From positions 1 to 49,723 of the forward strand of contig DROW01000174.1 in assembly GCA_011388675.1 (NCBI GenBank): DNA of 49,723 bases, read 5' to 3'. Of the stretch, positions 15,357 to 31,194 are shown in pieces (position 1 is the stretch's first letter; each line of letters opens with the position of its first letter). This DNA comes from Chloroflexota bacterium (GTDB lineage: Bacteria > Chloroflexota > Anaerolineae > B4-G1 > DUEL01). The notes below the pieces were generated by a model. That model ran no database searches, was not told the origin of the DNA, and worked only from the letters and a program-made list of their open reading frames with translations. The translations under genes and the position numbers were made by a program.

Positions 15357-15384
15357 TTGACTGTATTGGAAGAACAGGTATAAT
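15357..15384 (+). promoter_or_regulatory. sigma70-type promoter for the DUF4388/GTPase operon
   Basis: TTGACT (15357-15362), 16-nt spacer, TATAAT (15379-15384). Confidence 0.5.
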
Positions 15385-15452
15385 CAAGTCACTTCGACGA
15401 GAGTTGGGGAAGACGGGGGACCTGAAGGCTCCGCTAAGAAGGCAGGCAGGAT

Positions 15453-16283
15453 ATGGCGCTGAAAGGGAATCTGCGCGACTTCAACACCACTCAGTTGTTC
15501 AACCTGATCAACCTGGCACGGAAGACAGGGACGCTGACTATTGAGACCAAGGACGCGCGGGCCCGGCTCTGCTTCAAAGAGGGGAAGTTGATCTACGCTG
15601 GTCTCGACGGGCAGGACGATCGCCTGGTCACCATTCTCCTCAAGGCCGGGAAACTCACCGAGGAGCAAGCGCGCACCATCCGTGCTCGGTCCGACATCAA
15701 AAACGACAAGGAACTGGGGCTGCTGCTGATCAACGCGGGCTATGTATCCCAGGAGGACATCGTCCGCAGCGTGCGGGAGCACACGCTGGAGACGGTGTAC
15801 CAGTTGTTCAACTGGACGGAGGGCACGTTCCGCTTCGAGCCCGGCCTGCTTCCCATTGAGGGCCGGATCACCGTCCCCATCGACCTGGAGAACGTGATTA
15901 TGGAGGGCAGCCGTCGGCTGAAGGAATCGGCCCGGCTGGAGGAGGAACTGCCCAACCTGGATATGGCCCTTAAGTTCACGGATCGCCCAGATGCCCGTAT
16001 GCGGACCATCAACCTCACCGTTGAGGAATGGCGGGTCGTTTCCTTCATCAATCCCCGGAACACGATTCGCCAGATTGCTCAGTACAACAATATGAGCGAT
16101 TTCCAGATCCGGCGCATCGTCTACGGCCTGCTGCAGGCGGGGTTGGTGGAGTTGGTACCCCCGGAAGGTGTGGAGCGGAAGCCTCCCCCGGGTGCGCCTC
16201 CTGGCACTCCACCGAGGCCACGACGTCCAGCAGTGAAACGGAGCATCATCCAACGACTGATCGACCGCATCCGGGAGCTGTAG
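15453..16283 (+). CDS. DUF4388 (PatA-N-like) domain protein with a Pro-rich C-terminal tail
   Basis: The N-terminus LKGNLRDFNTTQLFNLINLARKTGTLTIE..ARLCFKEGKLIYA matches the DUF4388 pattern. The C-terminus is PPPGAPPGTPPRPRRP followed by a short helix. Confidence 0.7.
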   Translation: MALKGNLRDFNTTQLFNLINLARKTGTLTIETKDARARLCFKEGKLIYAGLDGQDDRLVTILLKAGKLTEEQARTIRARSDIKNDKELGLLLINAGYVSQEDIVRSVREHTLETVYQLFNWTEGTFRFEPGLLPIEGRITVPIDLENVIMEGSRRLKESARLEEELPNLDMALKFTDRPDARMRTINLTVEEWRVVSFINPRNTIRQIAQYNNMSDFQIRRIVYGLLQAGLVELVPPEGVERKPPPGAPPGTPPRPRRPAVKRSIIQRLIDRIREL

Positions 16284-16286
16284 GAT

Positions 16287-16847
16287 ATGCAAACGCTGAA
16301 GATGGTTGTTACTGGCCCCTTTGCGGCCGGAAAGACGCAGTTCATCCAGAGCGTCAGCGAGATCGACGTCGTCGAGACCGAGGCAAAGATCACTCGGGAC
16401 GAGGAAAAGATCAAGGACCGCACCACGGTGGCGATGGACTTCGGCCGCATCACCATCGACGAGGACCTGGTTCTCTACCTTTTCGGGACGCCTGGACAGC
16501 GCCGATTCGACTTTATGTGGGAGATCCTCTCCGAGGGGATGCTGGGTTTCGTTGTGGTCGTGGACAGCACGCGGCCGGAGACGTTCCGGGAGGCGCGGGA
16601 GATCCTCGATACGTTTTACAACTACGCGCCGACGCCCTACGTGGTAGCGGCGAACAAACAGGATCTGGAAGACGCGTGGGAGCCGGAGGACCTGCGGATC
16701 GCGCTCCGCATCCCCCGCGACGTGAAGGTCATTCCCTGCGTCGCCACCGACAAGGAAAGCGTGAAGCGGGTGTTGCTGGAGTTGCTGTATTCCATCCTGG
16801 AAACGATGGACGACCAGGAGGGAGAGGAGGGCGAGTCTGCGCAGTAG
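16287..16847 (+). CDS. small Ras-like GTPase of the MglA/CvnD (COG2229) type
   Basis: G1 is GPFAAGKT, G3 is FGTPGQ (no Asp, as in MglA-type proteins), and G4 is NKQD. It starts 3 nt after the DUF4388 gene. Confidence 0.8.
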   Translation: MQTLKMVVTGPFAAGKTQFIQSVSEIDVVETEAKITRDEEKIKDRTTVAMDFGRITIDEDLVLYLFGTPGQRRFDFMWEILSEGMLGFVVVVDSTRPETFREAREILDTFYNYAPTPYVVAANKQDLEDAWEPEDLRIALRIPRDVKVIPCVATDKESVKRVLLELLYSILETMDDQEGEEGESAQ

Positions 16848-16880
16848 GCCGAGGAGGGCGTCCTACAGAAATGGAAGGGC

Positions 16881-16909
16881 GGGGTCGAGCCGTTCGACCC
16901 CCTTTCTTT
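16881..16909 (+). terminator. Rho-independent terminator after the GTPase gene
   Basis: GGGGTCGA-gccgt-TCGACCCC stem-loop, followed by CTTTCTTT. Confidence 0.6.
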
Positions 16910-16995
16910 GGCTGTGATGACCTGTTCGGATCGGGCGACGCTCGTAACCGCTTCGTAATCGAGTTGGAACACAGGGCCCTCTTCCCCGTGGTTAA

Positions 16996-17004
16996 TGGTA
17001 TGAT
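16996..17004 (+). promoter_or_regulatory. extended -10 promoter candidate for the eight-gene operon
   Basis: TGgTATGAT lies 48 nt upstream of the ATG at 17052. There is no good -35 element. Confidence 0.35.
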
Positions 17005-17051
17005 ATGATAAGGAAAGCGGGTGGTCTATACCGGCGCTCGGTAGGGAAGGT

Positions 17052-17837
17052 ATGAGTTCGATCGTCACCGATCGAGGGTTGGTGCACTACGAGGCCTATG
17101 GACGCGGCCAGCCGGTCATCTTCCTCCATTGCTGGCTGGGATCGTGGAGTTATTGGGTCAGCACAATGGAGGCGTTGAGGGACCGGTACAAGACGTATGC
17201 GCTGGATTTCTGGGGGTTTGGTGAGTCGGCGAAGAAGGGGGATCAGTTCGGCGTCTCCGATTACGTCGAGATGGTGATGCAGTTTATGGAACGGATGGGG
17301 CTGGAAAGGGCCCCCGTGATGGGGCATTCGATGGGGGGGACGGTTTCTCTCAGCCTGGCCCTGACTTACCCCGAGCGCGTGGAGAAGGTGGCCGTGGTGG
17401 GGTCTCCGATCAGCGGCGACGGCCTCGCATTGATCCTGAAACTGGCCGCCAAACGGTACCTGGCCGCCCTCGCCTACGGGATCCCGGGCGTCCTCCCCCT
17501 GGGGGTGCGCCTGTTCTCCCCTTTCCTGACCCGCGACTGGAAGCGCTGGTATGGGATGTTCGAGCAGGACCTTTCCCGTACAACGCTGCACTCCTTTCAT
17601 TACAGCATCGCTTCGCTGCGGAAGACGGACCTGACCCCGCGCCTGAAAGAAATCCAGGTGCCGGTCCTGGGGATCTACGGTCTCAGGGACCGGATCGTCG
17701 ACCCGAAGCAGGGGGAGCTGCTGGAGCGGCACGCTCCGTTCGGCCAGGTCGCCTACTTCGATCAATCCGGCCACTTCCCGATGCTGGACGAGCCGGACCG
17801 GTTTCACGCTACGTTGGGAGAGTTTCTTGATCGATAG
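17052..17837 (+). CDS. alpha/beta-hydrolase fold protein (intact Ser-Asp-His triad)
   Basis: HCWLGSW oxyanion region, nucleophile elbow GHSMGG, Asp in GLRDRIV, His in SGHFPMLDEP. Confidence 0.8.
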   Translation: MSSIVTDRGLVHYEAYGRGQPVIFLHCWLGSWSYWVSTMEALRDRYKTYALDFWGFGESAKKGDQFGVSDYVEMVMQFMERMGLERAPVMGHSMGGTVSLSLALTYPERVEKVAVVGSPISGDGLALILKLAAKRYLAALAYGIPGVLPLGVRLFSPFLTRDWKRWYGMFEQDLSRTTLHSFHYSIASLRKTDLTPRLKEIQVPVLGIYGLRDRIVDPKQGELLERHAPFGQVAYFDQSGHFPMLDEPDRFHATLGEFLDR

Positions 17838-17849
17838 GAAGGGCTAGCG

Positions 17850-18503
17850 ATGCCATCTGCTTCGAGGAACACGGCCGAGCCGGACCAACTCGCCTACGCT
17901 TTCCCCAACAAGATGGGGCGGATCCTCCTCCTGGCGATGGAGGAAGTGATGGGGCAGAACGGGCTGACGGCGATCCTGAACCTGGCCAATCTGCGCCACC
18001 TGCAGGGGCGGTACCCGCCGAACAACTTCGATATGGACTTCCTTTTCGACGACGTCTCGCGGCTGTTCACCGCGCTGGACGAGATGTACGGGCCGCGCGG
18101 GGGGCGTGCGCTGGCCCTGAGGATCGGCCGGGCCTGCTTTCGGTTCGGTATCAAGGACTTCGGCCCAATGCTGGGCGTGGCGGATCTGGCCTTTCGGGTG
18201 GTTCCGCTGGAGATGAAGGTCCGTATCGGGTTGGAGGTCTCCGCCGAGGTGTTCAACCGGTTCAGCGACCACCGTGTCCGTCTGGAGGAGGACGAGGAGG
18301 ACCTCGTGTGGCTTGTCGACCGCTGCGGGGTTTGCTGGGGGCGCGAGGTGACCGCCCCCTGCTGCCACGCGACGGTCGGCTTCCTCCAAGAAGGGCTCTA
18401 CTGGGTCAGCGGCGGACGGAACTTCGATGTGGAGGAGGTGGCCTGTATCGCCGCTGGGGATGAGGCCTGCGCCGTTCGGATCAGCAGGCAGCCTGTCGAT
18501 TGA
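17850..18503 (+). CDS. V4R (4-vinyl reductase / BchJ- and XylR-sensor-like) small-molecule-binding domain protein
   Basis: The C-terminal Cys-rich V4R signature is VDRCGVCWGREVTAPCCHATVGFLQEGL..VEEVACIAAGDEACAV. It starts 12 nt after the upstream stop. Confidence 0.7.
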   Translation: MPSASRNTAEPDQLAYAFPNKMGRILLLAMEEVMGQNGLTAILNLANLRHLQGRYPPNNFDMDFLFDDVSRLFTALDEMYGPRGGRALALRIGRACFRFGIKDFGPMLGVADLAFRVVPLEMKVRIGLEVSAEVFNRFSDHRVRLEEDEEDLVWLVDRCGVCWGREVTAPCCHATVGFLQEGLYWVSGGRNFDVEEVACIAAGDEACAVRISRQPVD

Positions 18504-18509
18504 GGTAAG

Positions 18510-19766
18510 ATGCGGAAGATCATTCTCCGGGACCGCAAGCCGATATCGCCCTTCAACGAACCCGCCCGCGACCTGAGGGTGCTGAATAAGCCGTTGTGGC
18601 TCTACCAGCGGGATCTGCTCGCGCCTTACGTAACCCAGGAGCGGGAGGTGGATTCGTTTGAGGAGATCGGCCCGGAGCGGGTGGAGACCCTGGTCTACCG
18701 GGAGAACCTCTTCTTCGACCAGGAGTTCATCGAGGCCTTCCTCACCAAGGCGCGAAGGTTGGGCAAGGCGTGCCAGGTGGCCTTCCCGCTGGACGACAAG
18801 GCGATCGCCGAGCACGCCCTCCCCCTCCAGCGAACGATCCGCAGGGAGGGGGAACTGTATGTCGCCGATATGTGGTACTTCCCCTACGGAATCGAGGAGA
18901 ACGTCCGCCCCCTGGTGATGCACACCGAGCCGCGGGAAGTGGGGTACTACCACGTCCCGACCCATATGTCCAACGAGATGGGCGACCTGGTCTACAACGT
19001 GCCGACCAAAGCGTTTCTGGCCATCGAGACCTGGGTCCACGTACTGCTGGCCAACATCGTCTTTGGGGTGTTCGCCAGGGGGGCGCGGTTCGAGCGGGAC
19101 GTGGAGCGAAGTGTCCGCCTGCCCCTGCGCCTGCTCTGGCGGGCGCTCCTTGAGCAGAAGCAGGTTCTCTCTTCGTCCGCCGTGGTGAAGATCGGGCGAA
19201 ACTGCTCCATCGATCCCAGCGCGGTCATCCGCGGGCCGACGACCATCGGCGACAACGTCACCATCGGCCCGGGCGTCGTCATCGATAACTGCATCATCGG
19301 CAACAACGTGGACATCGCCCAGGGGTGCCAACTTCTGCTCAGCGTCGTCAGCGACCGCTGCTTCCTGCCCTTCCGGGCTTCTCTGTTTATGACGGTCCTG
19401 ATGGAGGACTCAATGGTCGCCCAGAACACGTGTCTCCAGTTATGCGTGGTGGGGCGAAACTCTTTCATCGGGGCGGGAAATACGTTCACCGACTTCAACC
19501 TGATCCCGAAACCCCTTCGGGTCCCCTACGATGGGAAACTGGAGCCGACCAATATGCCGGTCCTGGGCGGGTGCGTGGGCCATAACTGCCGGATCGGTTC
19601 CGGGATGGTCGTCTACCCGGCCCGGACGATCGAGTCGGACACGGTGTTGGTGCCATCGGCAGAACGGAGGGTGATCGAGAAGAACGTTACGTTTGAGGAA
19701 AGCGACCTGCACAAGATACCCGGTGGAATGCGGATGCATCCGCGGCTCTACCCTCCGCCCCGCTGA
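18510..19766 (+). CDS. left-handed beta-helix (hexapeptide-repeat) protein, alternative-GlmU / putative sugar-nucleotidyl/acyl-transferase-like
   Basis: Hexapeptide run IGRNCSIDPSAVIRGPTTIGDNVTIGPGVVIDNCIIGNNVDIAQGCQL... The N-terminal ~230 aa have no classical GxGxR NTP-transferase motif. It starts 6 nt after the upstream stop. Confidence 0.65.
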   Translation: MRKIILRDRKPISPFNEPARDLRVLNKPLWLYQRDLLAPYVTQEREVDSFEEIGPERVETLVYRENLFFDQEFIEAFLTKARRLGKACQVAFPLDDKAIAEHALPLQRTIRREGELYVADMWYFPYGIEENVRPLVMHTEPREVGYYHVPTHMSNEMGDLVYNVPTKAFLAIETWVHVLLANIVFGVFARGARFERDVERSVRLPLRLLWRALLEQKQVLSSSAVVKIGRNCSIDPSAVIRGPTTIGDNVTIGPGVVIDNCIIGNNVDIAQGCQLLLSVVSDRCFLPFRASLFMTVLMEDSMVAQNTCLQLCVVGRNSFIGAGNTFTDFNLIPKPLRVPYDGKLEPTNMPVLGGCVGHNCRIGSGMVVYPARTIESDTVLVPSAERRVIEKNVTFEESDLHKIPGGMRMHPRLYPPPR

Positions 19767-19840
19767 GGGGGGTAGGGGGCCGTGAGGGCCACGGGGTCCG
19801 CGCCTTCGCTGGCGTCTTTCAGAGTTACCGAACGTTGCCA

Positions 19841-20929
19841 ATGGACCGGTTCGCTTTCATTATCCACCCGCTAGAGCCCAAGGCGGATGTAGCGCGAAAA
19901 TACCCCTTCCTGGCCCGGATCCTGCCGGTTCGGCTGATCCACTTCTTCTCGCGCTACTGGCCGCCGCTGGTCCTTTCGCGGGTCACGGGGGTCCGGTCTC
20001 CGGCGACGGGGCGGGAGGTGGAGGGGTTCCTCCTGGCCTGCCCGCTGACCGCCCAGCAGATGCTCCGCCTGCCTACCCGGCTGGTCTACCGAAAGATCAT
20101 TCAGACGGGAAGGCTGGCCGAGCGCCTGGGGGCGCGGATCCTCGGGTTGGGGGCGTATACCTCGGTGGTGGGGGACGGCGGGTTGACGGTGGCGAAGGCG
20201 CTGGACGTGCCGGTAACGTCCGGCGACAGTTACACCGTCGCCGTCTCCGTCCGCGCGCTGCTGGAAGCGGGTCGGGCGGTGGGCGTCGAGCAGGAGCGGG
20301 CTGTGGCCGCGGTGGTGGGCGCGACGGGGGCCATCGGTTCGGCGAGTGCCCGATGGCTGGCGCGGAAGGTCCCCCGCTTGATCCTGGTGGCCCGCAGGGA
20401 AAGGGCGCTGCAGAGATTGGCGGATCGGATCGCCGAGGAGACGGGCGTGACGGTGAAGCCCTCCACACAGGTCGAGGCGATCGTTGAGGCGGACCTGATC
20501 CTCACGGCGACCAGCGCGGGGCAGCCGCTGATCTTCCCGCAGCACCTCAAACCGGGGGCGGTGGTGTGCGACGTCGCCCGGCCGCGGGATGTCTCCCCGC
20601 GCGTGATGGAGGAGCGGAAGGACGTCCTCCTGATCGATGGGGGGTTGGTGAAAACGCCGGAGGGCGTCGATTTTGGCTTCGACTACGGCTTGCCGCCAGG
20701 GTTGACGTTCGCCTGTATGGCGGAGACGATCGCGTTGGCTCTGGAGGGGCGATTTGAGGATTATACGGTAGGGAAGGACCTCTCTCTTGAGAGGATCGCG
20801 GAGATCGAGCAGATCACCCAGCGGCACGGTTTCCGGCCGGCGGAGTTCTTGGCGTTCGAACGACCTGTGGAGGAGGCGCGGCTTCGGGCCGTCCGTCGCC
20901 AGCGTAGAGGAGAAAACGGCCCGCGTTAG
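19841..20929 (+). CDS. acyl-ACP reductase (AAR)-family / COG5322 NAD(P)-dependent dehydrogenase
   Basis: Block-wise resemblance to cyanobacterial AAR: FAFIIHP, LGLGAYTSVV, TSGDSYT, AAVVGATGAIGSASARWL, LILVAR, LLIDGG, TFACMAE (conserved Cys), ALEG, RHGFRP. I preferred the ATG at 19841 over the TTG at 19835. Confidence 0.65.
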   Translation: MDRFAFIIHPLEPKADVARKYPFLARILPVRLIHFFSRYWPPLVLSRVTGVRSPATGREVEGFLLACPLTAQQMLRLPTRLVYRKIIQTGRLAERLGARILGLGAYTSVVGDGGLTVAKALDVPVTSGDSYTVAVSVRALLEAGRAVGVEQERAVAAVVGATGAIGSASARWLARKVPRLILVARRERALQRLADRIAEETGVTVKPSTQVEAIVEADLILTATSAGQPLIFPQHLKPGAVVCDVARPRDVSPRVMEERKDVLLIDGGLVKTPEGVDFGFDYGLPPGLTFACMAETIALALEGRFEDYTVGKDLSLERIAEIEQITQRHGFRPAEFLAFERPVEEARLRAVRRQRRGENGPR

Positions 20930-20953
20930 CCTGGTCCAGGCGGAGGTTGCACG

Positions 20954-21847
20954 ATGAGCGAGGGAAGAATCCTGATCGTAGAGGACGATTTCGACATCTC
21001 GAACATGCTCCGCATCTACTTCCAGAGCCAGGGGTACGAGGTCTCGGTGGCCCCGCGGGGAGAGGATGCGCTGGAGATGTGTCGGCAGCAGCTGCCCAAC
21101 GTGGTGGTGCTCGACATCATGCTCCCGGACATCGATGGGTATGAGGTCTGCCGACGGCTGCGCAGCAACCTGCGTACCAGCCACATCCCCATCATCTTCC
21201 TCACCCAGAAGGACGAACGGTCCGACAAGATCCACGGCTTGGAACTGGGGGCCGACGACTACATCACCAAGCCCTTCGACGTCGAGGAACTGAAACTGCG
21301 GGTGCGGAACGCGATGGCCCGCGCGACCTACGAGAGCCTCACCAATCCGACGACCGGGTTGCCCAGCGCTAAGTTGATCGAGGAGCAGCTGCGTCGGCTG
21401 ATGCGTCGGGACGATTGGGGCATCCTTTACATCGGCATCAACGGTCTCGACGCCTTCACCGAGGTGTACGGATTCGTCGCCGGCGACGAGGTCCTCCGCT
21501 ACACGGCGATGGTCATCGGCGAATCGGTGGACGCCGTCGGCACGCCGGACGATTTCATCGGCCACGTGGGAGGGGACGATTTCCTGATCATCACCGAGAA
21601 GTCCCTGGTCGAGCCGCTGGTGAAGGATCTGGAGCGACGCTTCTCCGAGGGGATCGGCACCCACTACGACTTCAAGGCCCGCCAGCAGGGCTACATCGTG
21701 GTGCGGGACGACGAGGGCAACGAGCGGAAGGTGGGGTTGATGACCCTGGCGATCGGCGTCATCACGAGCGACGACGGGCCCTTTACGGACATCCGGGAGA
21801 TCACCGAGGCGGCCGCGGCGGCCCGGCGGGAGGGGCGGCGACCATAG
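20954..21847 (+). CDS. response regulator: receiver plus GGDEF-type domain with a variant GGDDF motif
   Basis: REC features: IVEDDFD, VVVLDIMLPDIDG, YITKPF. GGDEF-like features: ..NPTTGLPS.., GINGLDAFTEVYGFVAGDEVL, HVGGDDFLII. Confidence 0.85.
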   Translation: MSEGRILIVEDDFDISNMLRIYFQSQGYEVSVAPRGEDALEMCRQQLPNVVVLDIMLPDIDGYEVCRRLRSNLRTSHIPIIFLTQKDERSDKIHGLELGADDYITKPFDVEELKLRVRNAMARATYESLTNPTTGLPSAKLIEEQLRRLMRRDDWGILYIGINGLDAFTEVYGFVAGDEVLRYTAMVIGESVDAVGTPDDFIGHVGGDDFLIITEKSLVEPLVKDLERRFSEGIGTHYDFKARQQGYIVVRDDEGNERKVGLMTLAIGVITSDDGPFTDIREITEAAAAARREGRRP

Positions 21848-21856
21848 CCTCGTTGG

Positions 21857-24800
21857 ATGCGGAGACGGAAGCGGAAGGTGAGCGGACCGGTGCGTAGGCG
21901 GGCATCCCCTGTTCTTCAGCCCAGGGCAATCGTCGCGATCAGCATCGTCGCGCTGTTGCTGTGGCTGGCTTATGGCCTCAACCACACGCCGGCCGAGTGG
22001 CAGCCGGTGCTCCGGCTGCTGGTGCCGATGGCCGTGGGCGTCCTGGCAGGTGTCGCCGGAAAAGAAGCGGGTCTGGTGGGGACGATCCTTTCCCTCGCTC
22101 TTTTGCTCCCCGGAACCATTCAGGCGTTGATCTCGGGATCGCTCGTCCAGGCGGTGTATGAACTGGTGCTCGTTGGCCTGAGCCTCGTCGCTGGGGTCCT
22201 CCTCCCCGTCCTGATCTCCCGTCGGGCCGAGCAGCGGTTGAATTCCCAACGGCGACAGATGGAGGAGCGGGCCGCTCGCTGGGGGACTGCCCTCTCCGGC
22301 CTGGGCCGCGTCGGCCGGGAGTTGAGCCTGACCTTCGATCCGGAACGGATCTATCGAGTCGTGGCCGAGGAGGCGGTCCGTTTTTGCCAGGCCGATCGGT
22401 GTGCCGTCCTCCTGCGGGATCTCGAAACGGGCGATTGGGACCTCGCCTTCTGTGTCGGCTACCTGGAGGAAGAGCAGGCTGCCTTGCGGGAGGCCGTGCG
22501 GGAACCCCCGCAGGGGACAGCGCTGTGGGAGGTGATGCAGGAGGGGAATCTGGTCCGGGTGGACGATGCCTCCGCCGAGGGCCGCACGGCGTGGGGGGAG
22601 GAAGGGGCCCGCTCTGCTGTGTTGGCCCCCTTCCGCCTGGGCGACGACCTGGCGGGCCTCCTCCTGCTGGAGAGCCGCGCCGCAGGCCCCTTCGATGAAG
22701 AGGCCCGCGCGTTCGTCGAGGCGTTGGCTACCAACCTCGCCGTCGCCGTGGGAAACGCTCACTTCTACCGGGAGCAGATGGAGCGCAGCGAGATCCTCCG
22801 CCGGCAGGCCGACCAGCTGAGCCACGTCCTGGAGATCGGCCAAGCCATCCGGTCCGACCGGCCGCTGGAGGACGTGCTTGAAGAGATCGCCTACGCCATT
22901 CAAGAAAGCGTCGGCTTCAACCTGGTGTTGATCAGCGTGCTGGAGGGAGATCCGCCACGGTTGCGCCGGATGGCCGCCGCCGGATTGCCGGTGGACGTGG
23001 TGGAACAGATGAAGCGGACGACCCAGCCGTGGTCTGCCCTGCAGACGGTGATGCGAGATGAGTTCCGGATCAGCCAGAGTTACTACATCCCCGCCGAGGA
23101 GCAGGCCCACTGGCGTGGCGTCCTCGACGTGTACGAGCGAGAGATCGCGGAGATTCACAGGGAGCCCGGTCGGTGGCATCCGCAGGATATGCTGATTGTG
23201 CCGTTGCTGGGCCCCGGAGGGGAGGTGCGGGGCATCCTCAGCGTGGACGAGCCGCGGGACGGGCGGGTGCCGGACCGGGCCACGATTGAGGCGTTGGAGA
23301 CCTTCGCGGTCCAGGCCGCTGTGGCCGTGGAAAACGCGCGGCTGGTGGAGGCCCTCCAGCGGCGGCTGGACCTTCTGACCTTCTTCAACGAGTTGAACCG
23401 GTCGGTCATCGCCAAACAAGGCTTGGAGCAGGTCCTCCAGACGGTGGTGGAGGCCACGGGGCACCTGGTGGAGAGCACCGGCAGCGTCCTTTTCCTGTTC
23501 GACGAGGAGAGCGGCCGATATGTGCCACGGGCGGCCTACGGGCACGATCTGGAGAGCCTGCAGGCGTACACCTATCCCCCGGGCGAGGGGATGGTCGGAC
23601 GGGTGGCGGCTACCGGTATGCCGCTCACCGTGGGAAACATTGAGGAGGAAGTGACGGGGGAGGGAGAGTACCTCCACGGCGGCGCGGTCGTCCTGACCCC
23701 CCTCACCTTCGGCGACCAGGTGGTCGGCGTGCTGGCGGTGGACCGGCGCTATCGGGAGCCGTTCTCGTCCACGGACGTGGCGACCCTCATCGCCCTGGCC
23801 GACCAGGTGGCGGTGGCGGTGCAGAACGCCCGACTCCTGGACGAGGCCGTCCGGCGCTCCCAGGAACTCGCCACGTTGCTGGAGGGAAGCCAGGCCCTCT
23901 CCTCTACCCTCGACCTCAACTGGGTGCTCCAGGCCCTGGGCGACCGGGTCCTCGCAATGACCGGGGCGGAGCGGTGCGTGATCTCCGAGTGGGATCGGGA
24001 GGCCGGGCGTCTGACGGTGGTCTGGGCGATTGGGAAGGAAGGGGTCGACGAAAGCCTCATAGGGTCCGATTACGGCGCGACGAGGTATGCGGCCGCCGTC
24101 GAGGTCCTGTTGACCCAGGAATCGCTTTCGCTGCCCTCCTCCGCCCTCGGCGAGGAGGCCACTGACTCCGGCACCGCCCTGCTTCTGCCGATGGTCGCCC
24201 GTGGGCAGACGGTCGGTCTGGTGGAACTGTGCCGGCTGGATGGGGGTTCATTCGCCCCTGGGTCGGTCCGGCTGGCTCAGGCGTTGGTTAACCAGGCGGC
24301 CGTGGCGATGCAGAACGCCCGTCTGTACGAGGAGGTCCATCGGTTCACCCAGGAACTGGAGCGCCGGGTCGAGGAACGGACGAGGGCGCTGGCCCAGGCG
24401 CTGGAGGAGTTGACCGTCGAGCGGGACCGGGTGGAAGTGTTGTACCGGATCGCCTCGGAGGTCTCCAGCAGTCTGGATCTGGACCACGTGCTGAACCGGA
24501 CGTTGGAGTTGGTCGCCCAGGCGGTTGGGGCGGAGCGAGGGGTGGTCATCCTGCGGGACCCCGGTCAGCCCGACCGGCTGATCCGGCGGGCGGCGGTCGG
24601 CGGGTCGGGCCCGGTGCCTCCCGGCGGAACCCCCGTCCGATGGCGACCCGGGGAGGGGTTGGCCTGGTGGGTCATCGAGCGGGACGAGGCGGTCCTGGTG
24701 GAGGATCTGCGGGAAGATGAGCGGTGGGTCGTCGAGGAGAACGACGAGCCGGTCCACCGGGCGTGTCTGGCGGTGCCCCTCAGCCGCGCCGGGGACGTCT

Positions 24801-26797
24801 CGGGCACGCTGATGCTCTACCACAGCCGCCCCGGCTACTTCGACGTGGACCATCTGCGGGTGGCGGAGGCAGCGGCTTACCAGATCTCCAACGCGGTGGG
24901 CAACGCGGCTCTCTACAACCTGATCCGCGAGCAGGCCGAGCAGTTGGGCGCGATGCTCAAGCAGCAGCAGGTCGAGGCGGCCAAGAGTCAGGCCATCCTG
25001 GAGGGCGTGGCCGACGGCGTGATGGTTACCGACGCCGATGGCCGGGTCATCCTCTTCAACGCGGCCGCCGAGCGGGTCCTGGGAGTCTCCCGCGAAGAGG
25101 TGCTGGGGCGGACGACGCGGGAGATGCTGGGCCTTTACGGGGCGGAGGGACGGGCCTGGCTGGACGCTATCGAGGAATGGGCCGCCAACCCGGCCGATCA
25201 CATCCCCGGCGACTTCACCGCCGAGCGGGTGCAGATCGGCGACCGGATCGTCAGCGTGCATATCTCCCCGGTGATTATGGGGTCCGAGTACCTCGGCACC
25301 GTCTCCGTCTTCCGCGACATCACCGCCGAGGTCGAGGCGGAGCGGGCGAAGAGCGAGTTCGTCTCCACCGTTTCCCACGAGTTGCGCACGCCGATGACCT
25401 CGATCAAAGGGTACACCGACCTGCTGCTGATGGGGGCTGTGGGTGAATTGACGGAGCAGCAGCGCCACTTCGTGACCATCATCCGCAACAACGCCGATCG
25501 GTTGACCGCCCTGGTCAACGACCTGCTGGACATCTCCCGCATCGAGAGCGGGCGGATCGAACTGAACCTGAAGCCAGTGCTGATCCAGGAGGTGGTCGAC
25601 CAGGTGGTCAGTTCGTTGCAGCCGCGGGCCAGCAGCCGGGATCTGGAGATCAGGGTCGAAGTGTCGCCGGATCTGCCGGCCGTGTGGGGGGACAGCGATC
25701 GGATCGCGCAGATCCTCATCAACCTGGTCGGGAACGCGATCCAGTACACCCCGCCGGGAGGCGAGATCACCATATCCGCTCGGGTCCGCGGAGAGAAAAT
25801 GGAAGTCTCCGTGGCCGACACCGGCATCGGGATCTCCGAGGAGAATCAGAAGAAGATCTTCGACCGGTTCTTCCGGGCCGACGACCCTCTGGTGCAGGAG
25901 ACCCCGGGGACCGGCCTGGGGCTGCCCATCACGGCCTCCCTCGTCGAGATGCACGGTGGGGAGATCTGGGTGGAGAGCGAACTGGGGGAGGGGAGCACGT
26001 TCACGTTCACCCTGCCCCTCGCCGAGGCGGTGCAGGCGGCCGCCCTGGCCCCGGAGCCGGAACCGCCGCTGGTCCTCGTGGTCGAGGACGACCACGACGT
26101 GGCGAATCTGATCCGATACCACCTGGAGGCGGCGGGGTTCCAAGTGAGGATCGCTGCGACCGGGCGGGAGGCCCTTCAGTTGGCGCGGGAGATGGAGCCG
26201 GCGCTGATCACGCTGGACCTGCTGTTGCCGGACATCAACGGGTTGGCCGTGTTGCAGCGGTTGAAAGAGGAGCCGGAGACGACGGCGATCCCGGTGGTGG
26301 TTGTTTCAGTTGTGTCTTCTAAGGAAGAAAGCCTCCGCCTGGGCGCGGTCGGATATGTGACCAAGCCGATCGACGAGGAGACCTTGCTGCGGGCGGTGCA
26401 GCGGGGTCTGGGGCGACGGGGCCCGATCCTGGTGGTCGACGACGACAGCGACACGCTCCAGTTGATCCGGGAGGCCCTCCGGCGGCACGGGCTGGGGGTG
26501 CGCACCACGCGGCACGGTCGCCGCGCGCTCCAGGTCGCCCGCGATGTTCATCCGGCCCTCGTCCTGCTGGACCTGAAGTTGCCGGACATCGACGGCTACC
26601 AGGTTTTGCGGGGCCTCAAGTCCAACCCGCTCACCCGCGACATCCCGGTAATGGTGATGACGGGCAGTCCGGGGCGGATCGAGCGCAGGGAGGAGGCCTT
26701 CACCCTGGGAGCCGCCCGCTTCCTCGCCAAGCCGTTTGCGGTGGAAGACCTGGTTCAGGAGATCACGAAACTGTTGGGCGATTCTCAAGGGTCCTAG
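21857..26797 (+). CDS. hybrid sensor histidine kinase: N-terminal TM helices, about five GAF domains, PAS, HisKA, HATPase_c and two receiver domains
   Basis: Repeated GAF endings (..AVAVGNAHFYRE, AVAVENARLVEAL, AVAVQNARLLDE, AVAMQNARLYEE, SNAVGNAALYNL). PAS (AILEGVADGVMVTDADGRVILFN). H-box SHELRTPMTSI. N/G boxes (NLVGNAIQYT, DTGIGI, GTGLGLPI). Two REC domains (ITLDLLLPDINGL; VLLDLKLPDIDGY). Confidence 0.9.
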   Translation: MRRRKRKVSGPVRRRASPVLQPRAIVAISIVALLLWLAYGLNHTPAEWQPVLRLLVPMAVGVLAGVAGKEAGLVGTILSLALLLPGTIQALISGSLVQAVYELVLVGLSLVAGVLLPVLISRRAEQRLNSQRRQMEERAARWGTALSGLGRVGRELSLTFDPERIYRVVAEEAVRFCQADRCAVLLRDLETGDWDLAFCVGYLEEEQAALREAVREPPQGTALWEVMQEGNLVRVDDASAEGRTAWGEEGARSAVLAPFRLGDDLAGLLLLESRAAGPFDEEARAFVEALATNLAVAVGNAHFYREQMERSEILRRQADQLSHVLEIGQAIRSDRPLEDVLEEIAYAIQESVGFNLVLISVLEGDPPRLRRMAAAGLPVDVVEQMKRTTQPWSALQTVMRDEFRISQSYYIPAEEQAHWRGVLDVYEREIAEIHREPGRWHPQDMLIVPLLGPGGEVRGILSVDEPRDGRVPDRATIEALETFAVQAAVAVENARLVEALQRRLDLLTFFNELNRSVIAKQGLEQVLQTVVEATGHLVESTGSVLFLFDEESGRYVPRAAYGHDLESLQAYTYPPGEGMVGRVAATGMPLTVGNIEEEVTGEGEYLHGGAVVLTPLTFGDQVVGVLAVDRRYREPFSSTDVATLIALADQVAVAVQNARLLDEAVRRSQELATLLEGSQALSSTLDLNWVLQALGDRVLAMTGAERCVISEWDREAGRLTVVWAIGKEGVDESLIGSDYGATRYAAAVEVLLTQESLSLPSSALGEEATDSGTALLLPMVARGQTVGLVELCRLDGGSFAPGSVRLAQALVNQAAVAMQNARLYEEVHRFTQELERRVEERTRALAQALEELTVERDRVEVLYRIASEVSSSLDLDHVLNRTLELVAQAVGAERGVVILRDPGQPDRLIRRAAVGGSGPVPPGGTPVRWRPGEGLAWWVIERDEAVLVEDLREDERWVVEENDEPVHRACLAVPLSRAGDVSGTLMLYHSRPGYFDVDHLRVAEAAAYQISNAVGNAALYNLIREQAEQLGAMLKQQQVEAAKSQAILEGVADGVMVTDADGRVILFNAAAERVLGVSREEVLGRTTREMLGLYGAEGRAWLDAIEEWAANPADHIPGDFTAERVQIGDRIVSVHISPVIMGSEYLGTVSVFRDITAEVEAERAKSEFVSTVSHELRTPMTSIKGYTDLLLMGAVGELTEQQRHFVTIIRNNADRLTALVNDLLDISRIESGRIELNLKPVLIQEVVDQVVSSLQPRASSRDLEIRVEVSPDLPAVWGDSDRIAQILINLVGNAIQYTPPGGEITISARVRGEKMEVSVADTGIGISEENQKKIFDRFFRADDPLVQETPGTGLGLPITASLVEMHGGEIWVESELGEGSTFTFTLPLAEAVQAAALAPEPEPPLVLVVEDDHDVANLIRYHLEAAGFQVRIAATGREALQLAREMEPALITLDLLLPDINGLAVLQRLKEEPETTAIPVVVVSVVSSKEESLRLGAVGYVTKPIDEETLLRAVQRGLGRRGPILVVDDDSDTLQLIREALRRHGLGVRTTRHGRRALQVARDVHPALVLLDLKLPDIDGYQVLRGLKSNPLTRDIPVMVMTGSPGRIERREEAFTLGAARFLAKPFAVEDLVQEITKLLGDSQGS

Positions 26798-26816
26798 ATA
26801 ACGGAGGGATGAAGCC

Positions 26817-27188
26817 GTGACGAAGATCCTCGTTGCCGAAGACGAAAAGGACATACGCGAGTTGATCGCCTTCACGCTCCGCTTCGCCGGCTACGACGTC
26901 GTGCTGGCCAACAACGGTGCCGAAGCGCTGCAGAAAGTGGCCGAAGAAAGGCCCGCCCTGATCCTGCTGGATGTCCGTATGCCCAAGATGACGGGGTACG
27001 AGGTCTGCCGACGGCTGAAGGAGAACCCGCAGACGGAGGACATCCCGGTCGTCTTCCTCTCCGCAAAGGGGCAGGATCGGGAGGTCCAGGAGGGGTTCGA
27101 ATCGGGGGCAGTGGACTACATCATTAAGCCCTTCGTTCCGGATGAGTTGATCGCTCAGGTGAAGCGGATTCTGGAGCAAACGGGGTAG
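26817..27188 (+). CDS. single-domain CheY-like response regulator
   Basis: ILVAEDEKD, LILLDVRMPKMTGYE, FLSAKG, YIIKPF. GTG start about 8 nt after GGAGGG. Confidence 0.85.
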   Translation: MTKILVAEDEKDIRELIAFTLRFAGYDVVLANNGAEALQKVAEERPALILLDVRMPKMTGYEVCRRLKENPQTEDIPVVFLSAKGQDREVQEGFESGAVDYIIKPFVPDELIAQVKRILEQTG

Positions 27189-27209
27189 AGCGCGAACGGT
27201 GCGCGAGCA

Positions 27210-28013
27210 ATGAGCGCGGTTATTATCGAGAGCGGGTTGGTCCATTATGAGGCCCTGGGCCGGGGCCGGCCACTGATCTTGATCCACGGCTGGCTGGGCT
27301 CCTGGCGTTACTGGGTGCCGACGATGGACGACCTTTCCGACCGGTACCGGACCTACGCGCTGGACCTGTGGGGGTTTGGCGATTCGGACCGGCGGCAGGG
27401 CGGATATACGCTCTCTGAATACGTCGCGCAGGTGCGCCGGTTTATGGACGAGATGGGGATTGTGCGCGCGCCGTTAGTGGGGCATGCCCTGGGTGGGGTG
27501 GTGGCGCTCCGCCTGGCGGTGGAGTCGCCTGAGCGGGTGGAGCAGGTGATGGGAGTCAGTGTGCCGCTGGACGGGACGGCCGTCGGGCGGTCTCTGGCCT
27601 CCTTCTCAGGCAACGGCGATGACATCCTGGCGCGCGTCTTGGGCCGTCGACAGGCCAGCGAGTACCCCGAGGTGAGGCTGGAGGCCAGAAAAGCGGATGG
27701 GCTTGCCGTCGCCGATACCGTGCGTGCGGTGATGCAGATGGACCTGCGTCGGGATCTGGCGCTGGTCAGCGTCCCCGTCCTCTTGGTCTACGGGGGGCAC
27801 GATCCGTTGATTCAGAGGCCGGAGGAGAAAGAGCGCAGGAGACGGTGGGACGAGGAAGACAACGTCCGGGTCATCTGTCTGGAGGAATCCCGCCACTTCC
27901 CGATGCTGGACGAGATGAACAAGTTTAACCGGCTGCTGCGGCAGTTCTTGGATACGAGCGGCGACCTCAGCGCGCTGGAAGTGAAGGAGGAGTGGCGGCG
28001 GCGGGTGCGATAG
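27210..28013 (+). CDS. alpha/beta-hydrolase fold paralog lacking the nucleophile Ser (GHALGG)
   Basis: It aligns along its N-terminal half with the 17052-17837 product (GLVHYEA.GRG.P.I..H.WLGSW.YWV.TM..L.DRY.TYALD.WGFG.S). The elbow is GHALGG rather than GHSMGG. Asp (GGHDPLI) and His (SRHFPMLDE) are retained. Confidence 0.8.
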   Translation: MSAVIIESGLVHYEALGRGRPLILIHGWLGSWRYWVPTMDDLSDRYRTYALDLWGFGDSDRRQGGYTLSEYVAQVRRFMDEMGIVRAPLVGHALGGVVALRLAVESPERVEQVMGVSVPLDGTAVGRSLASFSGNGDDILARVLGRRQASEYPEVRLEARKADGLAVADTVRAVMQMDLRRDLALVSVPVLLVYGGHDPLIQRPEEKERRRRWDEEDNVRVICLEESRHFPMLDEMNKFNRLLRQFLDTSGDLSALEVKEEWRRRVR

Positions 28014-28094
28014 GGGGAGCGGCTCCAGGCATCGAGGCACGGAGTCCTGCGGTGATTACGTGGGGAGAGGTCCCCACGCTGCGCACTTTTTGCA

Positions 28095-28164
28095 CCGCAG
28101 AGACACGGAGGGCGCAGAGAGTTGAAAGAAGTTGGAGGACTCTGCGCCCTCTGCGTCTCTGCGG
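28095..28164. repeat. long GC-rich palindromic element (REP/MITE-like) in a convergent intergenic region; probable bidirectional terminator
   Basis: CCGCAGAGACACGGAGGGCGCAGAG (28095-28119) pairs with CTCTGCGCCCTCTGCGTCTCTGCGG (28140-28164). That is 25 positions with 1 mismatch and 1 G-U, around a 20-nt loop. The arm is related to the element at 34262-34306. Confidence 0.6.
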
Positions 28165-28178
28165 CGAGGGTGGTAAAC

Positions 28179-28616
28179 CTACCGCTCCAGGAGGATGGTG
28201 ACCGGACCGTCGTTGTAGATCTGTACCAGCATATGGGCGCCGAAGAGGCCGGTCTTCACTGGGACGCCGGTCTCCGCGAGGACGCGGGCGAACAGGTCCA
28301 CCAGCGGCTCCGCCACCTCCGGCGGGGCCGCGTTAACGAAAGAAGGCCTTCGCCCCTTTCGGGCGTCAGCGTAGAGGGTGAACTGAGAGACCACCAGGGC
28401 CTCCCCCTCCACATCCAGCAGGCTGGCGTTCATCTTGCCGTGCTCGTCCTCGAAGATGCGCAGGCCGGCCACCTTGCGGGCCAGCCACGCCGCCTGCTCC
28501 TCGGCGTCGCCGTGGGTGACCCCCACCAGGACGACGACGCCCCGCCCGATCCGGGCGATCGTTTCCCCGTCTACGGACACCGCTGCCTGACTAACCCTCT
28601 GGACCAGTGCTCGCAT
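28179..28616 (-). CDS. dtd: D-aminoacyl-tRNA deacylase
   Basis: [45 protein letters not shown].. through the NDGPVT C-terminal motif. Confidence 0.9.
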
Positions 28617-28974
28617 CGTCTATCCCTCGGGCCCGTCCCCGCCATTCTTCGGGGGGGAACCGTTGCTCGTTGCGGGCCAATTTAGCCTGCACCGCCTCGC
28701 TGACGTCCGCCCCCAGCGCGTTCGCCAGACTCAAGGCGTAGATCAACACGTCGGCCAGTTCGTCGACGACCGCTGCCCGTCGACGAGGGTTTTCCATCGC
28801 CGCAGCGGCCTGCTCGGGGGAGAGCCAGAGGAAGTGCTCCATCAGTTCCGCGGCCTCGATGGCGATGGCGACGCTCAGGTTCCTGGGCGTGTGGTAGATC
28901 TCCCACTCCCGGGCGGCCACGAAGGCGGCGACCTGCCGACGTAGATGGGCTACGGTGGTCGCTTCGTCGCTCAT
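28591..28974 (-). CDS. MazG-like nucleotide pyrophosphohydrolase (small all-alpha NTP-PPase)
   Basis: ..[29 protein letters not shown].. and ..[14 protein letters not shown].. are EExxE/D-type motifs. The ATG overlaps the trpS stop (ATGA), and the 3' end overlaps dtd by 26 nt. Confidence 0.8.
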
Positions 28975-29963
28975 CGGACCGGTGGGAGGCCGATGGCCTC
29001 CTTGACCTCGGCGAGGACCTGGGAGGCGATGGCGGTAGCCCGACGAGCGCCGTCCGCCAGGACGTCCCAGATGTGGTCCGGCTCGGCGGCCAGCGCGGCC
29101 CGGCGCTCACGGAACGGCGCGAAGTAGTCGGCGATGTTCTGCGCCAGCAGCCGCTTGCAGTCCACACAGCCGATCCGCGCCGTCCGACAGTCCTGTTCGA
29201 TCTGCTCGACGTCGTCGGGGGAGAAGAAGCCGTGGAAGGTGAAGACGTTGCACACCTCCGGCCGGCCGGGGATGTGCCGGTGGGTGCGCTGGGGGTCGGT
29301 AACCATCCGCATCACCCGCTCCCGGATCTCCTCCGGCTCGGCGGCGATCTCGATGTGGTTGTTCAGCGATTTGCTCATCTTCTGCTGCCCGTCGATGCCC
29401 AGCACCTTGGGGAAATCGGTGTATTTGGCCTGCGGCTCGACGAGGACCTCGCCGAAGTGGTAGTTGAAACGGCGCACGATCTCGCGGGCAAGTTCCAGGT
29501 GGGGGGCCTGGTCCCTTCCCACCGGCACCGTGTCCGCTTTGTAGAGGACGATGTCGGCGGTCATCAGCACCGGGTAGCCGACCAGGCCGTAGTTGACGTT
29601 GTCCGGCTGCTGGCGGACCTTCTCTTTGAAGGTGGGGAGCCGGGTCAGCCAGCCGAGGGGGGTGAGCATCGACAGGATGGTGTGCAGTTCGGAGACCTGG
29701 GGGGTGTGGGACTGGATGAAGAGGATGGTCTTCTCCGGATCGATCCCGGCGGCCAACCAGTCCAGGGCCATCTCGTAGGTCCACTCGCGGATCTTGTCGG
29801 TGTCCTTCAGGGTGGTCAGAGCGTGCAGGTCGGCGACGAAGTAGATGCATTCGTAGTCTTCCTGGAGCGCGACGTAGTTGCGGATGGCCCCCAGGTAGTT
29901 ACCCAGGTGCTGGCGGCCCGTGGGACGGGCCCCGGAGACCACACGACCCTTCTTTGCCCCCAT
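28971..29963 (-). CDS. trpS: tryptophan--tRNA ligase
   Basis: SGARPTGRQHLGNYLGA (HIGH-type region), FVADLHALT, KMSKSL. I chose the ATG at 29963 because GGAGG lies 5 nt upstream. The longest ORF extends to 30002. Confidence 0.9.
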   Translation of the reverse strand: MGAKKGRVVSGARPTGRQHLGNYLGAIRNYVALQEDYECIYFVADLHALTTLKDTDKIREWTYEMALDWLAAGIDPEKTILFIQSHTPQVSELHTILSMLTPLGWLTRLPTFKEKVRQQPDNVNYGLVGYPVLMTADIVLYKADTVPVGRDQAPHLELAREIVRRFNYHFGEVLVEPQAKYTDFPKVLGIDGQQKMSKSLNNHIEIAAEPEEIRERVMRMVTDPQRTHRHIPGRPEVCNVFTFHGFFSPDDVEQIEQDCRTARIGCVDCKRLLAQNIADYFAPFRERRAALAAEPDHIWDVLADGARRATAIASQVLAEVKEAIGLPPVR

Positions 29964-31154: not shown

Positions 31155-31194
31155 AGGAGCCTGTTGGGGCGGAGGCCCCGAGAGGAGGTGATCC

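Follow-up and report, generated by a model that had tools for sequence, protein, structure and literature searches.

What kind of system is encoded by a bacterial locus in which genes for enzyme-like proteins and genes for a two-component system follow each other on one strand? This question was raised by contig DROW01000174.1 (assembly GCA_011388675.1), part of a Chloroflexota metagenome-assembled genome (MAG) from a hydrothermal-vent metagenome and identical to contig k127_511387 of ENA ERZ940665. The whole stretch of 49,723 nt that was analysed, with a G+C content of ~66%, is here called the window. A preliminary description of this DNA had delimited an operon of eight genes (g1 to g8), coupling a set of enzymes to a phosphorelay. 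The results presented below indicated that the conserved unit comprises ten genes, the eight of the operon and two upstream genes, gA and gB. We infer that this locus acts as a signalling module, in which a small GTPase and a two-component system would be combined with enzyme-derived proteins serving as sensor or adaptor subunits, and a probability of about 0.5 is given to this reading. To our knowledge, almost nothing is known about signalling in the Anaerolineae, filamentous bacteria that abound in sediments, hot springs, and digesters and have for the most part not been cultured.

Conservation of the ten-gene block

In the window, the eight genes are plus-strand open reading frames (ORFs) spanning 17052-28013, and all of them were of coding type (GC3 of 0.80-0.88) when the ORF list was combined with a frame analysis of the G+C content at third codon positions (GC3). 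The gaps from g1 to g8 are of 12, 6, 68 (74 when g4 is started at the ATG at 19841), 24, 9, 19, and 21 nt, and only weak terminator-like matches of 5 bp were found inside the block. In this respect the preliminary description was accurate, as it was for the terminator upstream of g1 and the 25-nt palindrome downstream of g8. On the same strand, the eight genes are preceded by gA (15453-16283) and gB (16287-16847).

Relatives of this locus were searched with an alignment of g3, which was scanned against one genome per GTDB species and retrieved relatives in at least 530 genomes. The 80 best-scoring loci, whose g3 proteins are 61-96% identical to that of the window, were inspected; gene presence was scored by tblastn with the ten window proteins, and the denominators given below correspond to the loci with enough flanking DNA. 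The genomes are labelled as Anaerolineae, Anaerolineales, Thermoflexales/Thermoflexus, or unclassified Chloroflexota, Chloroflexi, or Chloroflexia MAGs, and the g3 protein of 'Thermoflexia bacterium J88' is ~96% identical to that of the window. A single contig of 5 kb (L035, QMZE01000099.1), binned as 'Archaeoglobales archaeon', carries gA-gB-g1-g2-g3 with ~61-80% protein identity to the window (65% for g3), and is most likely a mis-binned Chloroflexota contig.

Both upstream genes were found in every assessable locus (60/60 each), with median identities of 58% for gA and 79% for gB, which is the most conserved protein of the block. Moreover, the spacer between gB and g1 did not exceed 25 nt in 11/67 loci, and it is on these grounds that the unit of eight genes had to be extended to ten. 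Besides g3, the anchor of the scan (median identity of 65%), the loci contained g5 (66/69; 71%), the kinase gene g6 (60/63; 42%), g1 (56/60; 63%), g2 (55/60; 52%), g4 (63/74; 56%), g7 (43/57; 67%), and g8 (41/56; 53%), the last two being undercounts because very long kinase genes push them past the fetched DNA. The invariant core is gA, gB, g3, and g5, almost always together with the kinase, and enzyme-like and signalling genes were co-localised in ~96% of the assessable loci, so that the synteny test proposed earlier came out in favour of the block. The recorded losses concerned g4 (~10-11 loci), g2 (5/60 assessable loci, about eight overall), and g1 (4/60 assessable loci, four to six overall); locus L054 lacked both the kinase and g4. 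In locus L058, two copies of g5 were observed.

The kinase is the most variable component, with 31-85% identity, lengths of 1470-2110 aa, and a number of GAF domains that changes from locus to locus; in several cases its gene probably extends past the fetched DNA. Variable kinases were recorded in L004 (13299-19631), L060, L070, L074, L075, L078, L080, L083, L085, and L087.

The genes beyond the block were much less constant than those inside it, whose order was preserved in ~60 species-level genomes, an arrangement that exceeds chance. Three g3 homologues of 66-69% identity were accompanied by the same ten genes in the same order, with different genes outside, and four further g3 contexts, including those three, agreed with the synteny of the 80 loci. 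The commonest family upstream of gA, RecN-like, was found in 19/46 loci, and the commonest one downstream of g8, Amidase_3, in 16 of ~40 relatives, which argues that the block is kept beyond background synteny. In fact, when g3 was 61-70% identical to that of the window, outside neighbours were common to at most 41% of the loci, against 85-100% for the genes inside the block. The best explanation for these results is a ten-gene locus inherited vertically, class-wide in Anaerolineae/Thermoflexia, and organised in two adjacent transcription units. Its near-intact presence in the 80 best genomes, with a GTPase of ~79% identity, points to an important cellular function. Literature searches found no paper on this gene set, and only a list of neighbouring genes in PMC8756737, in line with the earlier statement that no system of this composition had been described.

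A PADLOC-DB scan of the components returned no defence-system match, only generic receiver-domain hits.

GTPase, two-component, and enzyme-derived proteins

Domains were assigned with Pfam and NCBIfam profiles, which upheld the earlier domain calls, and statements on structure come from AlphaFold2 (AF2) models, for which the input alignments were shallow (61-96% and 69-100% identity). The product of gB is a small Ras-like GTPase of the MglA family (matches to ATP_bind_1, Ras, and Arf in Pfam), whose closest solved relative is MglA (1e-7). Its GxxxxGKT (P-loop GPFAAGKT), TT, GTPGQ, and NKQD motifs were invariant in 72-74 of the 74 orthologue rows, with GTPGQ in 74/74 and TT in 73/74, and the exceptions were alignment gaps. 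Thus, gB presents the P-loop GxxxxGK[ST] and the G4 motif [NT]KxD of the MglA family, as well as the G3 and G2 motifs of MglA groups 2-5, which are defined by GTPGQ in G3 and by a Thr in place of the intrinsic Arg finger in G2 (Wuichet and Sogaard-Andersen, PMC4316618). The same study reported that MglA genes are usually coupled to MglB/Roadblock genes, and that PATAN genes are occasionally found near group 1 and group 5 MglA genes (PMC4316618).

The gene located immediately upstream, gA, encodes a PATAN protein (DUF4388, Pfam 6.4e-31) that contains an insertion of four helices and ends in a MarR-like winged-helix region. In the AF2 model, with a mean predicted local distance difference test (pLDDT) of 74, a b-a-b-b-b-[four-helix insert, residues 58-118]-b-a core is followed by the winged helix, which matched a MarR protein (E 0.0018), and by a disordered Pro-rich tail. 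Foldseek returned nothing for this model at E 1e-3 or better. Its seven best matches, all of them NPRL3/NPRL2 chains of GATOR1 (E 0.0065-0.11, template-modelling score ~0.2), were below usual significance, and this modelled likeness may be regarded as a weak lead. In GATOR1, NPRL2/NPRL3 form a longin and winged-helix GTPase-activating protein for Rag GTPases.

A side observation concerns the insertion of gA (residues 57-110; 15621-15782), which weakly resembled MshEN/GspE_N (19.4 bits in NCBIfam, with a cut-off of 38; PilB N-terminus, E 0.29), a likeness worth recording given that a degenerate GGDEF protein is encoded at the same locus. The MshEN motif consists of two tandem 24-residue stretches, RLGxx(L/V/I)(L/V/I)xxG(L/V/I)(L/V/I)xxxxLxxxLxxQ (PMC5013675). 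Since gA lacks Gly3 of motif I, Arg1 of motif II, and the two Gln residues, binding of cyclic di-GMP in the manner of MshEN was rejected.

The two-component proteins are encoded by g5, g6, and g7. The g6 product (21857-26797) is a membrane-anchored hybrid histidine kinase with about four N-terminal transmembrane (TM) helices, five GAF stretches, a PAS domain, HisKA (H-box SHELRTP), HATPase_c, and two receiver (REC) domains. The g7 product (26817-27188) is a single-domain response regulator, and g5 (20954-21847) encodes a response regulator composed of REC and the first half of a GGDEF domain, in which the motif is degenerated to GGDDF. The fourth position of this motif was Asp in 48, Asn in 14, and Glu in three of 69 orthologues; the metal-binding first Asp was Gly in 60/69 and Asp in 1/69; the RxxD inhibitory/receptor site was lost, reading TPDD, with Thr at the Arg position in 57/69; and the guanine-binding Asn and Asp were changed relative to the Thermotoga cyclase 4urs. 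An active diguanylate cyclase was discarded on account of these altered residues. With Pfam and NCBIfam, no DNA-binding output domain was found in g5, g6, or g7, and no Hpt profile matched g6 or any other part of the block.

Two further proteins of the block have the fold of an enzyme without its catalytic signature. First, g3 (18510-19766; Hexapep 7e-17) combines an N-terminal nucleotidyltransferase fold with a left-handed beta-helix, as supported by the AF2 model (mean pLDDT of 78, with residues 1-140 mostly above 90 and at 85-97 per 10-residue block), by Hexapep and LbH profiles, and by Foldseek matches to CobY, VTC1/GMPP, ST0452, RmlA, and GlmU (E from 3.6e-5 upward). Sugar-1-phosphate nucleotidyltransferases carry G-x-G-T-R...K as their N-terminal nucleotide-binding signature. 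This loop was missing from the g3 family down to 23% identity (residues 5-15 read ILRDRKPISPF), and P14, F15, and W175 were invariant instead. From these residues, g3 is a probable pseudo-enzyme, and the absence of the signature loop led to its rejection as a GlmU-type enzyme. In this way, the hexapeptide repeats of the transferase-like protein announced earlier were recovered, but the nucleotidyltransferase signature was not. Second, the alpha/beta-hydrolase encoded by g8 (27210-28013) is paralogous to that of g1 (39% identity, E 3e-59), and its nucleophile elbow reads GHALGG. Among 42 orthologues, the nucleophile position was Gly in 27, Ala in 11, Thr in three, and Ser in one, while the His was kept in 42/42; the G-x-S-x-G pattern is therefore not maintained, and g8 is predicted to be a pseudo-hydrolase. 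The best solved relatives of g1 and g8 were PHB depolymerase, esterases, and C-C hydrolases.

Alpha/beta-hydrolases are known to participate in signalling in the RsbQ-RsbP pair of Bacillus and in D14/KAI2 of plants, and RsbQ and D14 keep their nucleophile. As in RsbQ-RsbP, a small alpha/beta-hydrolase is here encoded with a signalling protein, its presumed partner, and g8 could be a receptor. Unlike RsbQ and D14, g8 has lost the nucleophile, and neither g1 nor g8 is specifically RsbQ-like.

The best evidence that the enzyme-like and the signalling halves are functionally coupled came from distant relatives of g3. A search of 1.84 billion cluster representatives retrieved only 53 clusters at E <1e-30, together with a tail of full-length relatives of 23-43% identity. 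In a ~30% identical subfamily (P0164), an SDR/epimerase gene, the g3-like gene, and the gene of a HisKA_7TM(+GAF) histidine kinase followed each other in this order in 4/6 contexts, the upstream SDRs matching NAD_binding_4/3Beta_HSD. Among 80 metagenome loci of this subfamily, the g3-like gene was immediately preceded by the SDR gene in 21/53 and immediately followed by the kinase gene in 21/49, and none of the loci contained PATAN, GTPase, hydrolase, or V4R genes. The trio was recorded in L088, L090, L091, and L093 and in ~21 metagenome loci within L094-L173. Thus, a trio in which a protein of the g3 family accompanies an NAD(P)-dependent oxidoreductase and a sensor kinase of the membrane recurs in two clades whose reductases and kinases are unrelated, and to that extent the earlier intuition of a link between enzymes and signalling was supported. 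The distant trio looks like a second uncharacterised kinase-associated module, and the pairing of the g3 family with a sensor kinase constitutes a second lead at the family level.

In the mechanism proposed for the signalling module, the first transcription unit would supply the MglA-family GTPase and its PATAN-winged-helix partner, and the second one the hybrid kinase, two receiver proteins that lack a DNA-binding output of the classical kind, and five enzyme-fold proteins. The GAF array, the V4R protein encoded by g2, and the pseudo-enzymes would read cytoplasmic metabolite signals, with g8, g3, and the GGDEF part of g5, whose catalytic residues are gone in nearly all orthologues, acting as putative ligand-binding or adaptor subunits. 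That the GAF, V4R, and pseudo-hydrolase proteins might sense ligands, as previously suggested, is plausible. The kinase would phosphorylate g5 and g7, and these, acting with g3 and the PATAN protein, may determine where the GTPase is located, which partners it has, or in which nucleotide state it is; the gA winged helix might bind DNA as well. The output would be mainly protein-protein or spatial control, not a classical response-regulator transcription factor. Since g1 and g4 are each lost in some lineages, they would be accessory.

Several findings weigh against this reading. No Pfam match to Roadblock/LC7, the domain of the MglB partner, was detected in the ten genes or their flanks, and a good terminator separates gB from g1 in the window. 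The two halves of the locus, gA-gB-g1-g3 and g5-g8, can separate, as indicated by two Thermoflexus loci (L046 and L049) that carry gA-gB-g1-g3-g4 with no g5-g8 within 8.6 kb, and by Anaerolinea thermolimosa, for which DUF4388, GTPase, hydrolase, and GlmU-like genes are listed, without being analysed, directly before nirS (PMC8756737). Moreover, the loss of canonical residues is no proof of lost catalysis, and catalysis by g3 could proceed in another way; as both g1 and g4 look active, some chemistry is probably performed. Finally, the 80 best-scoring loci bias the counts towards close kin and may overstate the conservation over the whole set of genomes.

The nearest described systems are the actinobacterial conservon and the PATAN-MglA neighbourhoods. 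The Streptomyces conservon CvnA-D likewise encodes a GTPGQ-type MglA-family GTPase alongside accessory proteins and a histidine kinase that acts as a membrane sensor, and these products are presumed to assemble into a signalling complex that has no DNA-binding response regulator of its own (Komatsu et al. 2006, cited in PMC4316618). The conservon includes Roadblock/MglB (CvnB) and DUF742 (CvnC), both absent from the present block; its GTPase has NxFD in G4 (group 2), whereas gB has NKQD; and its kinase, which has a C-terminal LPxR, contains HAMP, for which no match was listed in g6, a kinase of TM-GAFx5-PAS-HK-RECx2 architecture. Compared with the conservon, the block has in addition a PATAN protein, two hydrolases, a V4R protein, a pseudo-nucleotidyltransferase, an AAR-like reductase, and a REC-GGDEF protein. 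The block was therefore not classified as a conservon. With the MglA/MglB polarity module and the PATAN-MglA neighbourhoods, it shares the GTPase family, the position of PATAN next to the GTPase, and the link to receiver proteins (PMC4316618; Makarova et al. 2006, cited therein). It differs from group 1 MglA/MglB in the absence of MglB and of an intrinsic Arg finger in gB (TT, not RT). The PATAN-MglA neighbourhoods are described there as 'occasional' and variable, and a fixed set of eight companion genes is not part of that description (PMC4316618).

What is new is that a GTPase of the MglA family lacking MglB is combined with a two-component system devoid of a classical DNA-binding output and with enzyme-derived, partly dead proteins. 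If these parts work together, they would extend the conservon/MglA idea of prokaryotic G-protein signalling, and would provide soluble proteins for testing the regulation of a small GTPase without Roadblock and the recruitment of pseudo-enzymes as sensors.

Other readings of the enzyme-like genes

In the preliminary description, the products of g1-g4 were proposed to make or modify a lipid-derived or aldehyde-type molecule, for which the receptor would be the GAF kinase, the V4R protein, or else the pseudo-hydrolase. The AAR-like reductase would give an aldehyde from an acyl thioester, the hydrolase and the transferase would tailor it, and the whole would resemble an autoinducer-like operon of a synthase plus its receptor. 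This possibility was judged to be rather unlikely, and the proteins on which it depends have to be considered one by one. The g4 product (19841-20929, with an alternative TTG start at 19835) is a predicted NAD(P)H-dependent thioester reductase of the AAR/PigE-N type (COG5322), with full-length alignments to the N-terminal reductase domain of PigE (1e-64), to PDB 4ppm (1.6e-38), and to cyanobacterial AAR (1.5e-26). In HMMER alignments, the Cys of its CMAET segment and its GATGAIG loop are in register with PigE/AAR, the Cys aligning with that of FACFAE in AAR, and the catalytic Cys and GxxGxxG were each kept in 66/66 orthologues, so that g4 looks catalytically competent judging from its residues. 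The g1 product (17052-17837; Abhydrolase_1, 4.2e-29) also looks competent, since its motif reads GHSMGG and its Ser-Asp-His triad is intact (S93 in 72/72, D213 in 71/72, and H241 in 71/72 orthologues). These two proteins speak in favour of a small-molecule product, as does the position of the distant g3-like gene between an NAD-dependent SDR and a sensor kinase, together with the co-localisation of enzyme-like and signalling genes reported above.

One putative receptor of such a molecule would be g2 (17850-18503), a stand-alone protein of the predicted V4R small-ligand-binding type with a conserved Cys/Glu cluster. The window sequence scored 24.9 bits against V4R (PF02830), below the gathering score of 31 bits, and 29/31 of its orthologues matched the family (best 1.1e-10), by which the earlier V4R call was substantiated. 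The g2 family profile matched the sensor domains of MopR/PoxR and MJ1460 over the Cys/Glu/Cys/Cys region, and C172, E196, C199, and C207 align with the MopR segment holding the zinc-site residues of MopR/PoxR. By this profile match and these metal-site positions, g2 is assigned to the V4R-domain proteins. It shares with the sensor (A) domain of XylR/DmpR/MopR/PoxR the V4R domain, the aligned Cys/Glu/Cys/Cys residues, and a length close to that of the complete sensor domain, and differs from these regulators in not being fused to an AAA+ sigma-54 activator. V4R proteins are known to bind hydrophobic ligands (PMC2253512), which suits the proposal of a lipid-derived signal. The V4R-hydrolase pair BchJ/BchO of photosynthesis gene clusters was rejected as a precedent, since NCBIfam yielded no match to BchJ, and the 42 bits for BchO stayed below the cut-off of 172.

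What argues against the making and sensing of a dedicated molecule is, first, the absence of g4 (11/74), g2 (5/60), or g1 (4/60) from loci in which the signalling genes stay. The dispensability of g4 and of the V4R gene is difficult to reconcile with an obligate biosynthetic pathway, and a dedicated route of four enzymes fits these data poorly. Second, g3 lacks the nucleotidyltransferase signature, so that the presumed enzyme set is reduced: g1 and g4 look catalytic, but g3, g8, and the GGDEF part of g5 are degenerate. Third, g4 scored 104.8 bits against AAR (TIGR04058), far under the cut-off of 449.7 bits, with no adjacent ADO, and lacks the aminotransferase domain of PigE, so that it was assigned to neither family. 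It shares with AAR and the N-terminal reductase of PigE/KecF (COG5322) the full-length alignment, the thioester-forming Cys, and the NAD(P)H loop, and is unlike them in falling under the equivalog cut-offs, in having neither ADO nor a fused aminotransferase, in being located in a signalling locus, and in being dispensable in ~15% of loci. In the window no ADO gene was found, and within the block there were no genes for an acyl carrier (ACP), an acyl-activating ligase, or an aldehyde-consuming enzyme such as ADO or an aminotransferase. Fourth, the invariant PATAN-GTPase pair is left out of this model.

A role of the module in monitoring or regulating cell-envelope metabolism (glycans, peptidoglycan, or nucleotide sugars) was also considered, with g3 as a nucleotide-sugar-binding regulator of the GMPPA/eIF2B kind, and with the kinase and the GTPase directing envelope growth or septum remodelling in these filamentous bacteria. 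GMPPA, KONJAC, and eIF2B gamma/epsilon are regulators composed of a catalytically impaired nucleotidyltransferase and a beta-helix; the target regulated by eIF2B is a GTPase, and GMPPA works as an allosteric sensor. Like them, g3 shows the two-domain architecture of sugar-1-phosphate nucleotidyltransferases with a C-terminal beta-helix, and has lost the catalytic glycine-rich loop. Unlike them, g3 forms its own family, the likeness being one of fold and hexapeptide repeats, with no orthology at the sequence level. A relation to the envelope is also suggested by a g3 family member (P0253) fused to a GT2 glycosyltransferase, by the NDP-sugar-type epimerases/dehydratases that adjoin the distant g3 subfamily, and by the Amidase_3 gene that directly follows g8 in the 16 relatives mentioned. 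Nevertheless, the fusion is a single cluster, most loci and also the window lack the amidase, and g4 is a thioester reductase rather than a sugar enzyme. Moreover, this proposal refines the output side of the signalling module without a distinct mechanism of its own, and it must be considered unlikely.

The ten genes could, in turn, be two or three unrelated units (PATAN-GTPase, enzyme genes, and two-component system) frozen side by side and joined by ancestry alone. As would be expected from such a juxtaposition, the loci all belong to a single lineage, gB is followed in the window by a terminator and g1 is preceded by a promoter-like element of its own, and Thermoflexus and A. thermolimosa have no g5-g8 at the site. 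Against it, the spacers are very short or overlapping (medians of -4 to 44 nt within the block). The gB-g1 spacer is longer, with a median of 90 nt in relatives, and is itself reduced to 25 nt or less in the 11 loci cited above. Furthermore, the adjacency of g3 and a kinase recurs independently in the distant subfamily, and the flank control, in which outside neighbours are shared far less often than the genes of the block at g3 identities of 61-70%, separates this locus from its surroundings. Because of the flank control and the short spacers, an accidental assembly is distinctly unlikely.

The weakest proposal, a small-GTPase regulatory complex built from eukaryotic GTPase-regulator folds, in which gA would correspond to NPRL2/NPRL3 of GATOR1, the V4R protein to Bet3 of TRAPP (V4R and Bet3 being homologous, PMC2253512), and g3 to eIF2B gamma/epsilon around an MglB-less MglA-like GTPase controlled by a metabolite-sensing GAF kinase, is highly improbable, and the g2 profile gave no sequence match to a TRAPP/Bet3 chain.

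Regulatory elements and neighbouring genes

The transcription of g1-g8 is probably delimited by signals on both sides. A terminator-like hairpin (16881-16909, plus strand) follows gB, with a G+C-rich stem of 9 bp at 16881-16901 and then a T-run (CTTTCTTT tail), and its position is not conserved among relatives. Downstream, an inverted repeat of 25 nt (28095-28164; arms 28095-28119 and 28140-28164, with a 20-nt loop) is located between the convergent genes g8 and dtd. It is 92% complementary, occurs once in the window, and is a probable bidirectional terminator.

The spacer between gB and g1 harbours a promoter-like element (16956-17009, plus strand) formed by a TTGGAAC box and an extended -10-like TGnTAnnAT. 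When 23 of these spacers (22 relatives and the window) were aligned, T-G-n-T-A-n-n-A-T was invariant and a TTTAAC..TGCAAC box was conserved. In the 22 relatives the element reads TTTTTTAAC.GAA.TGCAACGGCC, followed after ~28 nt by TGnTAnnAT, and the window contains a diverged form. It extends over ~55-90 nt, its second part being formed like an extended -10 box, and was found at the same position in L006, L017, L020, L021, L023-L025, L032-L034, L037, L038, L041, L043, L047, L050, L052, L053, L055-L057, and L061. In many loci, the -10-like box was flanked by complementary arms. RNAalifold predicted zero pairs on the spacer alignment, and a per-sequence duplex test of these arms gave a weak signal (mean z of -1.6); hence, the element was considered promoter-like and not an RNA structure. 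A promoter combined with an operator is conceivable here, the operator perhaps being bound by the gA winged helix. An Rfam scan of 13000-29000 found no known RNA family. Altogether, g1-g8 are probably a real transcription unit with its own promoter.

An independent promoter in the gap between g3 and g4 had been named beforehand as a finding that would speak against a single operon. The sole plus-strand sigma-70-like match inside the block, TTGCCA-17-CATTAT at 19835-19863, overlaps the start of g4, which by orthologue consensus is the ATG at 19841 and not the TTG at 19835. In relatives, the median distance between g3 and g4 is 11 nt, so that such an internal promoter is not conserved.

As regards the downstream side in other genomes, the Amidase_3 gene encodes an N-acetylmuramoyl-L-alanine amidase, is located directly after g8, at times overlapping its stop codon, and is not there in the window. 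It was recorded in L003 (19026-19793), L004 (20908-), L006 (19036-19809), and 13 further loci.

A few genes upstream of gA-gB, the window contains a Tad-type pilus locus (6506-12267) with RcpC/CpaB, REC-ParA (CpaE-like), a T2SSE ATPase, and two T2SSF genes. Cyanobacterial PATAN proteins are known to contact pilus ATPases. The Tad pilus was rejected as the output of the module, since this neighbourhood is not conserved in other genomes. Between the pilus locus and gA lie an ORF of 373 aa (13663-14784; GC3 of 0.87), with no match in Pfam, NCBIfam, or PADLOC, and, just upstream of gA, a low-molecular-weight phosphotyrosine phosphatase gene (14778-15275), neither of which is conserved beside the block in other genomes.

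Two further genes of the window deserve mention. A minus-strand ORF of 594 aa (34330-36114) joins an APS-kinase (4e-66) to a class-III aminotransferase (5.9e-133), which is an unusual fusion, and the ORF at 31192-32325 combines an NADPH-dependent FMN reductase/flavodoxin-like domain with a C-terminal SCP2 sterol-carrier domain.

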